This document shows positions 53,101 to 62,100 of a stretch of 64,000 nt of DNA, piece by piece (position 1 is the first letter of the stretch; every line of letters begins with the position of its first letter). The DNA is from Podarcis tiliguerta (lineage: Eukaryota): the NCBI GenBank assembly GCA_965153285.1, contig OZ229122.1; one strand, 5' to 3'. The position numbers were made by a program.

Positions 53101-56100
53101 GTGTGTTTAGGACTGCAGCATTAACTTGGTTTATCCTCAGAATAAGTGGGAGGGTGTCCTAGCTAGCCATTAGTATTTGTTTTTTCCACTGCAGCCAATT
53201 AGTCAATGGCAGAGGTAGGACTTGAATATAGGCCTCTCACATATTAAGTCAAGTAGACATTGCATTATACAGTCTCTCTGTCCCCATTGTTTTATATTTG
53301 TTGGGCAGGCCCAATCCTGAACCATCTATCCAGAATGGAAGTGAAGAAGAGCAAATATTTGTAAACGTCATCCTCTTATTTTATTTAGAAATTAACTATG
53401 ACTTATAGTTATCAAAGCAATAAATACAGTAATAAAAAACATAATTAAAAATGAGTTTATAAGCAGGTAGCTGAAGGCTTTAGCATGAACCTAAAATGTT
53501 TATTCAAAAGTAACATCTATTAAGTTCAATAGGGTTTACTGCCAACTGTGTGTGTAGGATTATAGCCTCGACCACATGAACATGAAAAGGTCTATGCTAC
53601 ATCTAAAATGAAAATACTGGTTTTGAAATAACTTTCATATTTGCTTTAAGTGCCAATGAGTTTTCCCCCCTTCCTTTGCCAAGTTAGCCAGGCCCACTTT
53701 TACATCTAACGTCAAAATTTGGAATTGGTTCCCATTGGAGAAATCATGATTTCAAATTCAGAACTCATTGAAGCTCTCGAGTTCCCAGTGCAGATTTATC
53801 ACCTGTAAAGTCAGGGCACTGGAAGTTTTGAAAGGAGCTCGAAATGTTGTCAACAACGTCTTGTCAACCTCGTTTTGCGCGAAGGCGCGAGCACCCTCCC
53901 CCATGTAAACAATATTCATTGAAACTTTCCTGACTTTCAAAGTCGCATCCGAAGTATCTGCGAGTCCTAGGGGAAGTGCATGTTTTCACGAGCCAAAGCT
54001 GCCTCTCCTCATTCATAAGTGCATCTTGTTTTGAGCACCTTCGAATAGTCGCGCCAGCCCGCCCAGCGAACAATTGGAAGAATTTTTGAGGAAAGAAAAA
54101 TCGAGTCCTCCCTCCCTCCGTCCGAAAGAGAGAGGGAGACTCCAACCCCCAGCATCCCCCAGGACTCCATTTCCCAGCATGCCCTTCACTCGCGATGGCC
54201 TTTCCCTCGCCCCGCGGGCTCGCAGTCCCGCATCCCGCTCTATCTGATTGTGAGGGAGAAGAGCGCCGTCTTCCGCAATTCTTTTGGCCCGCGGCCTCTC
54301 GCCGGGACGCCGTCCTCCCCCGTGACGCGCCTGTGAGACACTTTGGGTTTGAGTTTCTTTTCTCTTTCTCCACGCACGCACACCCTCCTTCGCGTTACCC
54401 GAGCTCTCGCGAGACTTGAGCGCCGAGGCCGGCGGGTGGAGGGAGCGGTGGGAGGAGGGAGGGGCTGGCCCTGGCGCTTGGTGGTGGCGGCCGCCATTTT
54501 GCCGCGGCGGGTCAGGTCTGGCTCGGCGGGGCCTGGTTAGGGATCAGCATCCGGGTGGGAGGGGTGGGCGACGTGCCGAGGAGCACCGGCGAAGGCCGCG
54601 CAAAGGGAGAAGTCGCGCGGGAGAGGCCTGGGGGCCGCGGATGGCGGCGGATTCTCTCCGGCCGAGGCGGCGGCGCTGGGGCTGAGGCGGCGGCAGGAGG
54701 AGGCGGGGCAGGAGGCGCCTCCCCTCCCTCCTCCCTCCTCCCCCCTCCCACCCAGGTAAGATGGCGGACCGGCCGGGGCTCTACTCCTCTCGCTCACACC
54801 CACCTCCCTGGAGGGGTGCAAGTCTCTGCTTCGAGTCGGGAGGGAAAAGTGAGGAAACAGATAAGAGCGCGCGCGTGTGCCTGGTTGCCGGTGGTCGCGC
54901 GCGCGCGCGGCCTTTTACCTCCCCCGAACCTTCCTCTCTTCCGTCGGTCATTTCCCTCCCCTACCTATAGAGGGCGCACTAATGGAGAGTGGTGGGGCGG
55001 GAAATAAGAGAAAGGAGCCAATGTGGGAGCCGCACGCGCTTACCCAGCCAACGGCCGCTCTCAATGCTGGCCTATTATTACTTCACCTATCGCCCTCCTC
55101 CCCCCCCCGTCACCTCGTTTCCTCGCGCGCCGCGAAACCGACCAACCAACGGCCGCCTACTTTTCAGCGGGTGGGGGAGGGGCGAGCGGGGATTCTCGGG
55201 GGACTAGGGAGGGAGGGCGAGGGAGGGAGGGAGGGGTTTGGGGGAAACCGGGGCGGGGTCAAGGGGTCAAAGGGAAAAGGTGGGAGGGAAAGGGTGACAA
55301 AGGGGTTAAAGGGTGGGGGGGAAATCAAAGGGCATCGAACTTGTGCTGAAAAAGAAAGAAACTAGGCGTCAGAGGGGGAATCGCTTGTGATTAGGGTGCA
55401 ATGAATGAATAAATGCAGGATTGCGGGTACAAGGATTGATTTTTAGCGGGGCGCAAGGGTTCTGAGAAAGGGTGGCAAGTTCAGAGGGTATTAGGGTATC
55501 ATCTGGGACTTGAGCAGTTGCACTGCTCTAGGGTTTGGGTGGCTAGTGATAATACTTGAAAAGTTGGGAGGGGGTTGCAGTTACTTAGCACCATCAAAGT
55601 TTTGCAAGAAACCAGAGCAGAAATAAGTGAAAGGTTAATGTGGTCATGGAGCCTGAGGAGGGGCAGGCTGAAGCTCAGGATGATAGGAAGGGAAAGGAGG
55701 CTGTAGTGAATGAAGAGACCACAGTGGAAGTACCTCCCAATGAGGTAGAGAGAAAGATAACTGGATTGCTTCCAGAGACAGGTGTGGGACAGGGAGAGGC
55801 TAAAGACTCAGAGGCAGAAGAGGAGGCTGAAAAAGAACATGAAGCACCAAGTACTGGAGAGTTGATGGAACCAGACCAGGATACATTTGGACCCTTAGCA
55901 GAACTGGATAGGGGGGTGGCTGAGGATGCAATGGCATTAGGAATGTCTGGGGAAGAGGCTGAGGAAATTATTGAACCAGATCTGAGAAAAGCAGAAGAGT
56001 TGGAGACAGTGATTCTTGAGGAACTTCAGCTTAAGAGTAATAGAGAGAAAGAAGAAGTTGAAGAGTCAAGAGAACCAAATCAGGAGGAAACCAGTGTTTT

Positions 56101-59100: not shown

Positions 59101-62100
59101 TGTGAAGGGAGTGAAGGTGGCTGAAAGTCCCATTGATACTATTCCATTGAGTTCTCTTAAGACTGGTTCCATTCTGGGGCAGGTTGAACAGAGGGCGCTG
59201 AGGCTGGCACAGCATGTGGAGGGTGAGGCTGTGTCAGGATTGGAAGTAGAAGGGCAGGGGCTGGCTGAGAGGCTGAAGCAGGATATGGAGCCAGCAGGGT
59301 CAGGCCAGGGAGGTAGAATTACAAGGTAACTGGGTTAAGTGTGGAGTGAGAGGGAAGGAACAAAAGGTTTGGGAGATAGTGGGTTATTTATGAGCTAGGG
59401 ACAAAATTGAGCTATAGAAGCAGAGAGTTAATAGGACGCTATAGCAATAGAGTTGAGTTGCAAAATCTCAGCTTGCAGGATGAATGGGTTGTAGATCTCT
59501 CTCAAGAATGAAGCCAAGAAGGGAAGTAAACTTCCCTGGGATAATGATATGAGGGTGACGTGCAGAATATTGACGCTTCTGAAGCAAAGGTGGGTACATA
59601 GGAAGCAAAATAAAAATAATTTATTATTTATACTCCACTCATCTAGCCGGGTCGCCCCAGATACTGAGAAGATTTTGGGCTTTGGATACCTAGGCATGGG
59701 AGTGAGTGAAAAGAACACTGCTAGACAACTCAGAATCCGTAAAGTGGATGGGAAAGTGAGATAATTCTAGTGGTTCACCAAACCGCACCCCAAACAGGTT
59801 CCTGCCTCTTTTCATAGGCTTGAATTTGGTAGCTGGTGCGTACAGTAAAACTCTCCACCGCAACCCGTGGGCCGGCTATTCCCATGCTGTCTGCGTAACA
59901 ATAAAAGAGAGACAGGGTTTGATCTACCCTTTGGCAGAGTCGTTCAGGGTCCCAAGAGCAAGTTTGAATGATCCTTACCTAAAGGAATAGGTTGCTGTGC
60001 ATCTACCACACGCGCACACACACAAAATGTTCTCTGGACTAACGGTTCCATCTTTCTTCAGGTGTAGTATTCCCCAGGAAAGCGAAACCCTGGAAGTTCA
60101 GCCTGACAAGCAAGAGGAGTTCGCAGCTCGCGCAGGTACAGGTGAAACTGAATACCATTGGGGAATTGGCAACAGGGTTTTAAGCAGGAACATCAAGCAA
60201 ATCTATATCTTTGGCTGTTTTTCTGAGCTCAGTGTTGGATTTATTTTCTTTTCAAAATGCTTTTTCTGTCACCAACATCTATATTGATGGGCCAGAATTT
60301 ATTATGTACTGGAATCTGGCTTGGCCACAACTAAACTTAATTTGCTTCTTGAGATATGATGGAGGGATATAAAAAGCAGCTCAAAGGAATGAAATAAAAT
60401 TTACAGTATCTGTTCATAGCTCCCCTGGAAATTTTTGGAAAGTCTAGGCATTTAGTACTAAACAGTAGAATATGTATCCAGTGGAGGAAGATAGGGGAAT
60501 CCTCTACTTGTAGGCAGGGTTTACATCTTTTGTGTCTAAATATTAAAGTTTTAAATGCAAACTTTGAGAGAAAACATTTTTTCACATTACCCAAACGTTT
60601 ATTCTGTAACAGAAAATGTTTACTTGTGTGTACAAACTTAGCAACGGAGATTTTCTAATGCTGTTGTGTTTTTGATGGCTACTGTGTTGGATATATTAAT
60701 TTTCTACTGGGTTCTGCCACCAGATCTCTTGTATATCGTAAATTGGGAGAGGCTAACTCCCAGTTTGGGGGGGCCTGATCCGGCTCCCAAGCAAATTTTT
60801 CTGGGGCTCCCCTGATTTTGGCAACAGCAACCAAAAAGGAAAAAAGAACCCCTCCTCCCTTCACTGTAATCATTAATCAAATCATATTTATACTCACATC
60901 TTCTTTTTTGAGAAAAACCTAGTGAGAAATGAGATTTGATCAGCTGGGAACTGTTTGGTTTACATTTATGCTCTTTATTTAATAGCTGCTTTTAAGGTGC
61001 ATTACTTTCCTTCTTTAATTTTTAGTGCTTTACTTTGTGTTAAAGGAAAGTAAAATTGTAGGCAGAAGGCATGCTAATGTCATTTTGACGTTTAATTTCA
61101 CTTCCTCTGAAAATCTTCCTTTAGCTTGTTCTTGAGTGGGTGTCTTTCAGTTCTTTTCAGTCTGGCTCTGATCACAATGCGACTGATTCCTCTTCATGAA
61201 TCTCTAGATAATTCTGAGACAGGCAGTCCCGAGCGCAGGCTGGGCTGCCAAGGAACCCAGGAGCTGGACGGCTCGTCCCAGTGGCTGGCTGACCAGAATG
61301 AGGCCGGTTCCGAGCATGCACTGGAGCAGGAAGCCAGCACTGCAACCGCAAACGAAGCTGTTGGGACGAGAGGCAAAGAGCAAGAGAGAACTAAAATGCA
61401 GAGCAGTCCTCCCCAACAGCAACATGCGCTGCAACCACAGGTAGAGTTGGAGGTGAGGGGAATCCCAGTGTAAGGCCCTGTGTTTTGAGGCCGCTTACTG
61501 GATTACAGTTTTTCAAAGCACTGTAGTTCATTAGGGGTCTTCAGAATGAATTTTGACTGCTTTAGTGAAGTATGTGGATGATCATTGTACTACAAAGAGC
61601 ATCTGTGAGAGTCAGAACAAGGGATGCTCTTCTCTGATGCTCTACCTAGATAAGCTCCCCAGCGCTGTTGGGTTCCTTTAAGGCCACTATAATAATTTTC
61701 TACCCTCGTTTGTCTCCTCTTGTTCATCTCAGACTGCATCGGACAGAATGACAGGCAGTAACCCAGTGTCACCAGCCTCCTCGGGCTCACCTGCCTCAAC
61801 TGGCAGCCTCTCACCACCACATCTCACCCACGACTCCTCGCTGGACAGTCACCCAGGTTTTGATGTTCCCAAGACACAGAACAGAGCCCTTGTGTCGCCC
61901 GGGATGTACACCTCCCCGGACCCTGCAAGCATGTGGGACAAGACACACGCGGAGATTGCTGAGCAGGCCAAGCATGTAAGCCACACATGGTCCAGGGATC
62001 ATTTGGCCCCTTCTGCCCTCTTGAGTTGGGCATGAACATACACAATCTAAGTTAACATTCTGTTTAGTTTGTCCTTCCAAGCTGCAGTTCACAAGGATAC

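Follow-up and report, generated by a model that had tools for sequence, protein, structure and literature searches.

A giant open reading frame in the first intron of a lizard SRCAP gene, a candidate alternative 5′ coding exon

How does a reading frame of more than 1200 codons come to stand open in what looks like the first intron of a conserved gene, and does its product belong to that gene? The question is raised by a 64,000-nucleotide stretch of contig OZ229122.1 from the lizard Podarcis tiliguerta (assembly GCA_965153285.1), referred to below as the window, in which a giant open reading frame (ORF) lies on the plus strand after a CpG island and before the exon with the canonical start codon of SRCAP, a histone-exchange ATPase. 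A first, sequence-only reading had described this ORF as a Glu-dominated, repeat-built stretch followed by a non-repetitive remainder richer in Gly, Arg and Ser, had likened it to ORF15 of RPGR, and had suggested that it might supply the enzyme with a disordered acidic arm. We find that a long frame has been kept open here against a high expected rate of stop codons, and that it encodes a polypeptide predicted to be disordered, first acidic and then basic. The ORF is very probably coding, as judged from its sequence. The overall explanation that we favour, a genuine coding exon of the SRCAP locus used as an in-frame alternative 5′ exon, is a more tentative matter, falling slightly short of an even chance.

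The open frame and its excess over chance

The plus-strand frame is open from 55631 to 59329, a run of 1232 codons from stop to stop, in a window that contains no N. Its first ATG, at 55646, is codon 6 of the frame and stands in the context GTC ATG G (G at −3, G at +4); from there to the TAA at 59327–59329 the ORF specifies 1227 amino acids (aa). Over the same 1232 codons the other two plus-strand frames contain 90 and 94 stops. Both parts of the ORF share in this: the acidic first part of 780 codons (the N part) has no stops against 55 and 66 in the other plus frames, and the remaining 447 codons (the C part) have none against 35 and 27. The sequence-only reading was thus right that the frame has been preserved.

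It had also cautioned that base composition might account for the ORF, and had proposed a simulation of the expected ORF length. When the region was shuffled 1000 times with its dinucleotides preserved, the longest open frame had a mean of 109 codons and a maximum of 220, and simulations with Markov models of order 2, 3 and 5 (500 each) gave maxima of 220, 249 and 218 codons. The giant ORF is therefore five times the longest open frame in 2500 randomised sequences, and the second-longest open frame in the whole window, on either strand, has 322 codons. Purine richness gives the frame no protection, because apart from their T the stop codons consist of purines. A null calculated by arithmetic from the base frequencies measured at the three codon positions of the ORF, and already favoured by the ORF's lack of stops, still predicts some 38 stops where none is observed, about 21 of them in the N part and about 17 in the C part. 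The shuffles, the Markov simulations and the stop counts together mean that composition alone cannot explain the giant ORF, and the caution can be set aside.

Both signs expected of a coding exon at the codon level, a three-base periodicity and an asymmetry between codon positions, are present. The period-3 spectral signal reaches about 10 times background over 55800–57600, within the N part, and 1–4 times background in the C part, with values of about 1.3 or less in the flanks and the CpG island; G makes up 0.57 and T 0.07 of bases at codon position 1 in the acidic part, and G 0.38 in the C part. Amongst direct-repeat families (20 listed of 26), 35 of the 36 successive spacings are multiples of 3, although these families overlap, so that the spacings are not independent events and mostly echo the codon periodicity. 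The one clear duplicated pair of segments, 56483–56539 and 56651–56707, differs at 4, 3 and 8 sites in codon positions 1, 2 and 3 respectively, with six codons changed synonymously and five changing the residue: small numbers, in the direction expected of translated sequence. On all of this sequence evidence we consider it highly probable that the ORF is a coding exon under selection for an open frame. A 186-aa open frame on the antisense strand (58774–59334) was also considered and rejected, as it matches chance expectation: a frame of 186 codons or more appears in 356 of 500 codon shuffles.

Two-part build, predicted disorder and a recurring motif

The product is built in two parts, largely as the sequence-only reading had it. 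Residues 1–780 (55646–57985, plus strand), the stretch with the strong period-3 signal, are Glu-dominated (E 23.6%, D+E 29.0%, K+R 9.4%) with a net charge of −153. Residues 781–1227 (57986–59326, plus strand; 447 aa) form a mildly basic, non-repetitive part, delimited by composition and with no fold or family detected, in which Gly, Leu, Arg and Ser are the prominent residues (G 12.5%, L 9.2%, R 9.2%, S 8.9%; D+E 10.7%, K+R 14.3%) and the net charge is +16. The transition between them is gradual, over aa ~660–780. We also observed that CGN triplets make up 21 of 41 Arg codons in the basic part, including five CGA codons that are one CpG transition from a stop, against 1 of 33 in the acidic part; the basic part also has the higher ratio of observed to expected CpG, 0.40 against 0.10. 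This contrast may indicate that the two halves of the ORF differ in age or constraint.

The acidic part is predicted to be disordered. In the charge–hydropathy plot its mean hydropathy of 0.404 lies well on the disordered side of the boundary at 0.484, and AlphaFold2, which models a few isolated helices in it, gives a mean pLDDT of 41.7 and leaves 632 of 780 residues below 50. The C part falls marginally on the ordered side (0.446 against a boundary of 0.426), with just 13 aromatic residues in 447; its mean pLDDT is 37.1 (below 50 for 386 of 447 residues) and its pTM 0.17. Single-sequence AlphaFold2 thus gives no sign of a folded domain in either half, and since these runs used no alignment the models are weak evidence.

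The acidic part had been described as built from decayed repeats left by an old tandem expansion. The six repeat strings quoted in support are all present in the translation, at aa 284, 340, 385, 460, 515 and 663, and two further copies occur at aa 46 (GVGQGE) and aa 584 (GAAQRE). Their common element is G-[LVIAP]-x(1,2)-Q-[GR]-E, or in short form G-x-x-Q-G-E, often preceded by E-E-L-x. The eight copies compare with a mean of 0.095 in 5000 composition shuffles, none of which reaches eight, for a pattern chosen after inspection of the data. Across aa 284–668 the motif recurs at intervals of 45–79 aa with variable acidic spacers between, and a zone of seven variable units, each starting (E-E-L-x)-G-L/V/I-x-Q-G/R-E, can be marked out over aa 276–730 (56471–57835, plus strand).

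What recurs, then, is a short motif, and the evidence for whole repeat units is much poorer. Tandem Repeats Finder detects no array within the ORF apart from one 11-nt match in two copies, and comparison of the ORF with itself by blastn returns just one internal match, a 57-nt pair with 75% identity. A hidden Markov model (HMM) of the seven units scores at best 2.3 bits on aa 1–275, against 5.3 for the top shuffle, and does not extend the repeat into the C part either; no repeat was detected in aa 50–275. When each unit was left out of the HMM in turn, three of the seven beat at least 299 of 300 shuffles, three others were exceeded by 4, 18 and 19 of 300, and the unit at aa 507–575 failed (222 of 300); without the first 17 residues just two of the seven stay at or below 7 of 300. 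The core residues of the motif are kept while the codons vary, a count that is biased because the copies were picked by their protein pattern. The repeat is thus a short motif spaced at irregular intervals and not a clear tandem array of whole units, and an old tandem expansion is possible for aa ~276–730, with the 57-nt pair as the one match in its favour.

The SRCAP locus and a possible in-frame junction

The host gene is SRCAP. The exon at 62139–62324 (plus strand) matches residues 103–164 of human SRCAP (PDB 6igm_H) with 55 of 62 residues identical (E 1.9e-32), the p400 chains being far weaker at about 1e-20, and it contains the start of the HSA domain (Pfam HSA, E 4.9e-14). This agrees with the histone-exchange enzyme referred to in the sequence-only reading. 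Both SRCAP and Swr1 show deep conservation, and the H2A.Z–H2B substrate is handled by their N-terminal regions. The presumed SRCAP promoter is a CpG island at 54000–55000 (GC 0.61–0.70; observed/expected CpG 0.88, 95 CpG), in which a putative non-coding exon 1 would end at the donor CAG/GTAAGA (54755/54756; here and below a slash marks the splice boundary), recognised from the sequence. The canonical SRCAP start, ATG 61396 (MQSSPP...), lies in an exon at 61125–61440 (plus strand) whose 5′ edge is uncertain, at 61125 or 61161. The SRCAP frame is already open from 61111: between 61126 and 61395 its 90 codons include no stop, whereas the other frames have 6 and 4, its G+C content at third codon positions is a coding-like 0.55, and an ATG at 61177 lies upstream in the same frame. 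SRCAP may start at least 73 codons before the MQSSPP start in this species, however the giant ORF is to be interpreted.

The 3′ end of the giant ORF suggests how the two might be connected. The sequence CAAG/GTAACT (59322–59331, plus strand) resembles a splice donor that would end an exon at 59325 in phase 2, the apparent stop codon being the TAA of G-TAA at the start of the intron. It is the only AG/GTAA in 55000–60000 and one of six AG/GTRA sites, and five GGG runs lie in the 75 nt that follow it. A phase-2 exon with a GTRA donor necessarily reads straight into a stop, whilst under a model in which the stop is a plain one we put the probability of an AGG codon directly before TAA or TGA at about 2% (AGG accounts for 15 of the 447 C-part codons). 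Two candidate acceptors, 61124/61125 and 61160/61161, are both in phase with the giant ORF.

We therefore arrive at the following scheme for the favoured explanation, which remains conditional at each step. Downstream of the SRCAP CpG-island promoter, a giant exon would be kept open by selection and translated from ATG 55646, giving a disordered acidic arm of ~780 residues with the recurring G-x-x-Q-G-E motif and then a mildly basic tail of 447 residues. It would serve as an alternative 5′ coding exon ending at CAAG/GTAACT, with the apparent stop forming the start of the intron, and would be joined to 61125 or 61161, from which 78–90 codons lead in frame to the canonical SRCAP methionine. The outcome would be a SRCAP isoform with about 1,300 extra N-terminal residues. 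The picture is coherent and each piece of it is soft; the spliced model was judged exon by exon from sequence. We would put in-frame splicing to SRCAP at, or a shade under, an even chance.

What the arm would do is more speculative. It could act by its charge, holding H2A.Z–H2B or H2A–H2B dimers near the enzyme, or mimicking DNA. Acidic-aromatic anchors are a hallmark of H2A.Z–H2B binding motifs, and such triplets are not enriched in the ORF (2 seen against 1.98 expected; 2813 of 5000 shuffles reach 2). Nor did a phmmer search of all PDB chains at E ≤ 1 find any likeness to the known acidic segments that bind H2A.Z–H2B. We consider a histone-binding role for the acidic arm unlikely. Slightly more doubtful again is the larger idea of a lineage-specific rebuild of SRCAP, in which an arm of ~1,300 residues acts as a built-in holder of histone dimers or as a DNA mimic and alters how the remodeler is loaded or restrained. 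A more modest account also fits: selection may have acted mainly to keep the frame open for read-through to SRCAP, with the residues drifting under the local mutation bias, which would explain why the synonymous composition is odd and why neither a fold nor relatives were found.

A number of observations tell against the spliced SRCAP exon, in addition to the lack of anchor triplets. The acceptors of exon 2 are ambiguous: in 60800–61396 there are ten AG sites with at least 13 of 20 pyrimidines, a good candidate at 61150/61151 is out of phase, and the in-frame ATG at 61177 could by itself explain the open frame upstream of the SRCAP ATG. No convincing acceptor was found upstream of ATG 55646, the best tracts having 12 and 11 of 20 pyrimidines. 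A perfect donor, GAG/GTGAGT, lies inside the ORF at 57336 (57336–57344). The C part has a weak period-3 signal. The giant ORF has no Pfam family and no phmmer match amongst all PDB chains, in each case at E ≤ 1, and the ESM Atlas gave no usable match to the whole ORF or to the C part. Since the PDB library includes SRCAP, p400 and EAF1 chains, the ORF is also without a counterpart in the 3230-residue human SRCAP chain.

The remaining objections come from base composition. A C-poor, purine-rich block on the plus strand runs from about 55200 to about 59600 (per-100-nt counts; GC skew 0.19–0.58), so that the purine skew does extend beyond both ends of the ORF, as had been noticed from the sequence. 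The composition begins about 450 nt before the ATG and continues about 270 nt past the donor, as would fit the untranslated regions of a stand-alone transcript; C makes up 12.5% of the near 5′ flank and 11.4% of the near 3′ flank, compared with 19% elsewhere in the intron. At four-fold degenerate sites C amounts to 5.2% in the N part and 8.4% in the C part, against 34% in SRCAP exons, and A to 46% and 40% against 23%; A, and not T, replaces C. Finally, an AATAAA lies about 280 nt past the stop.

The near flanks, 55350–55630 and 59330–59600, show the same lack of C as the synonymous sites of the ORF. Decay of CpG explains part of the shortage of C at position 3, but as a full explanation it can be ruled out. 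In the N part C occupies 0.9% of third positions before G and 9.2% before other bases, and in the C part 2.9% and 12.3%; these non-CpG values of 9–12% are well under the 22% of the neighbouring intron. The lack of C could stem from a mutation bias near the promoter, from selection for purine-rich splicing enhancers, or from a foreign origin.

The alternative that best withstands these results, and one to be taken seriously although we think it the less probable, is a separate gene or transcript within SRCAP intron 1. This would be driven by the CpG island or start at a site of its own near 55.2–55.6 kb, stop at the TAA at 59327 and end near 59.6 kb, yielding a free disordered protein of 1227 aa that is not joined to SRCAP. 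The UTR-like spread of the C-poor composition beyond both ends of the ORF would be explained at once, as would the codon usage unlike that of SRCAP exons, the AATAAA, and a first ATG placed at the very start of the open frame with no good acceptor upstream. Such a gene would leave to chance, at the ~2% estimated above, a stop embedded in a donor-like CAAG/GTAACT, and it offers no account of a phase that agrees with two acceptors of the next exon (61125 and 61161). The AATAAA, moreover, may be incidental. We observed an interspersed repeat of 52 nt with 81% identity between 59609–59660 and 44107–44158, the 44-kb copy being preceded by (AAT)n; the copy at 59609–59660 adjoins the 3′ end of the C-poor block, and the AATAAA falls in the matching stretch.

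It is rather unlikely that the ORF is instead a young, lineage-specific one, arisen from a purine tract downstream of the promoter, translated or not, with no selection on its residues and at most an open frame kept, for example to avoid nonsense-mediated decay. The absence of relatives in Pfam, PDB and the ESM Atlas and of any confidently predicted fold would be natural for such an ORF. So would the single odd composition shared by synonymous sites and flanks, as from a block-wide mutation bias, the weak period-3 signal of the C part and an N-part CpG ratio of just 0.10. Against this, repeats that have decayed to 75% identity or less imply time for stops to have arisen, yet none is seen where ~38 are expected, and the motif core has been kept while its codons varied, with the bias of that count already described.

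A tract derived from a satellite or transposon, or a frame open by chance in skewed DNA, is very improbable: the purine skew beyond the ORF and the interspersed-repeat fragment adjoining the block at 59609 are what could be said for it, whilst within the window we found no tandem array, no direct or inverted terminal repeats (LTR-like or TIR-like) flanking the 55.2–59.6 kb block, no reverse transcriptase, integrase, gag or transposase domain in the ORF (Pfam, E ≤ 1) and no second copy by blastn or tblastn, and the frame exceeds the randomised maxima fivefold.

A lineage-specific addition of more than 1,200 residues at SRCAP, if maintained by selection, would amount to a natural experiment that could reveal how disordered acidic arms tune histone exchange, or how giant low-complexity exons arise beside CpG-island promoters and persist. 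This applies equally to a polypeptide fused to SRCAP and to one that simply shares the SRCAP promoter. Because its synonymous sites are unlike those of the neighbouring exons, a giant exon of this kind could easily be missed by gene-finders trained on codon usage, or be mislabelled as intron. Our literature searches on SRCAP isoforms and first exons and on lizards found nothing on this exon among the papers listed, for lizards as judged by title and opening of the abstract, most subscription journals being outside their coverage.

Known systems and features nearby

The comparison with RPGR ORF15 holds in part. The human RPGR exons before ORF15 are 54% purine and ORF15 itself 89%, with Glu and Gly making up 67% of 567 aa; across the species tabulated there, ORF15 is 86–89% purine and about 60–67% Glu+Gly, in highly repetitive units (PMC6770968). 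Since exons of one gene can differ in purine content to this degree (54% against 89%), an odd composition is compatible with fusion to SRCAP. Both cases present a long purine-rich coding stretch in what is otherwise an intron of a conserved gene, with a composition unlike the rest of the gene; the likeness extends loosely to an acidic, imperfectly repetitive part that gives way to a more basic C-terminal end. The differences are considerable. ORF15 is a 3′-terminal exon (exon 15 plus intron 15), whereas the giant ORF lies at the 5′ end. The giant ORF is far less extreme in its purine content (N part 70.8%, C part 61.2%, ORF15 89%) and in Glu+Gly (34.0% in aa 1–780 against 67%); its repeats are far more decayed. 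Its tail is 447 aa long and weakly basic (+16; K+R 14.3%), with no conserved domain detected. The host here is SRCAP and not RPGR with its RCC1-like domain, and no sequence relationship to ORF15 was found in Pfam or PDB. The giant ORF thus resembles RPGR ORF15 in kind but does not belong to that family.

A functional parallel would be offered by the histone-binding segments of the exchange machinery itself. The H2A.Z–H2B binding motifs of Swr1 and Swc2/YL1 are described as highly acidic and unstructured when unbound (PMC6544321). The motifs of Swr1/SRCAP, Swc2/YL1, Chz1 and ANP32E resemble the arm in being acid-rich and unstructured, as the arm is predicted to be, and the enzyme would be the same one if the giant exon were spliced as proposed. 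They differ in being short, defined segments, there is no sequence match, and the acidic-aromatic triplets stand at chance in the ORF. The canonical SRCAP N-terminus and HSA region, from 61396 on, share locus and strand with the giant ORF and lie directly downstream of it, with a sharply different synonymous-site composition.

The giant exons of ankyrin-B and ankyrin-G provide a further precedent: they are lineage-specific and multi-kilobase, and each adds a long unstructured, low-complexity segment to a conserved protein. They lie inside their genes and are known from transcripts to be included, whereas inclusion at the SRCAP locus is inferred from splice-site-like sequence and from phase.

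Internal splicing of the giant exon is possible, judging by the perfect donor at 57336; three other AG/GTRAG sites are present, at 56749, 57787 and 58390. Further 5′, two short upstream ORFs were observed, one of 14 codons in a strong context at 54641–54685, within the putative exon 1, and one of 22 codons in a weak context at 55638–55706, which reads across the main ATG in another frame. The putative exon 1 has a C-rich run at its end (54721–54745); this run and a very G-rich tract 466 nt further on are 76% complementary over 25 nt. That tract, at 55160–55340 just past the promoter, comprises (AGGG)n at 55206–55235 together with GGG runs and has the potential, judged by its sequence, to form a G-quadruplex or R-loop.

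The rest of the SRCAP gene in the window, all on the plus strand, consists of three more exons. That at 61733–61975 (TASDRMTGSNPVSPASS...) is placed by splice sites recognised in the sequence and by its neighbouring exons, and we take it to be SRCAP partly from a presumed likeness to the SRCAP N-terminus. The exon at 62640–62780, with splice sites likewise drawn from the sequence, encodes the second half of the HSA domain (Pfam HSA, E 0.0018, 19 bits, below the 23-bit cut-off). The last, at 63803–64000, is truncated by the end of the window, has an acceptor recognised in the sequence and no family match, and is assigned by position. Upstream of SRCAP lie a multi-finger C2H2 zinc-finger exon at 8735–9700 on the minus strand and an AUTS2-family gene at 45194–45718 on the plus strand (Pfam Auts2, E 5.3e-11), which we take to be fibrosin-like, an assignment that would fit the human gene order. 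A search of the whole window against Rfam returned no families. Between the SRCAP exons there are a (TG/CA)-rich microsatellite at about 63000–63070 and, in the intron before the exon at 63803, a repeat-like element at 63340–63560 with several copies of a short AACCTGAAG-like word.

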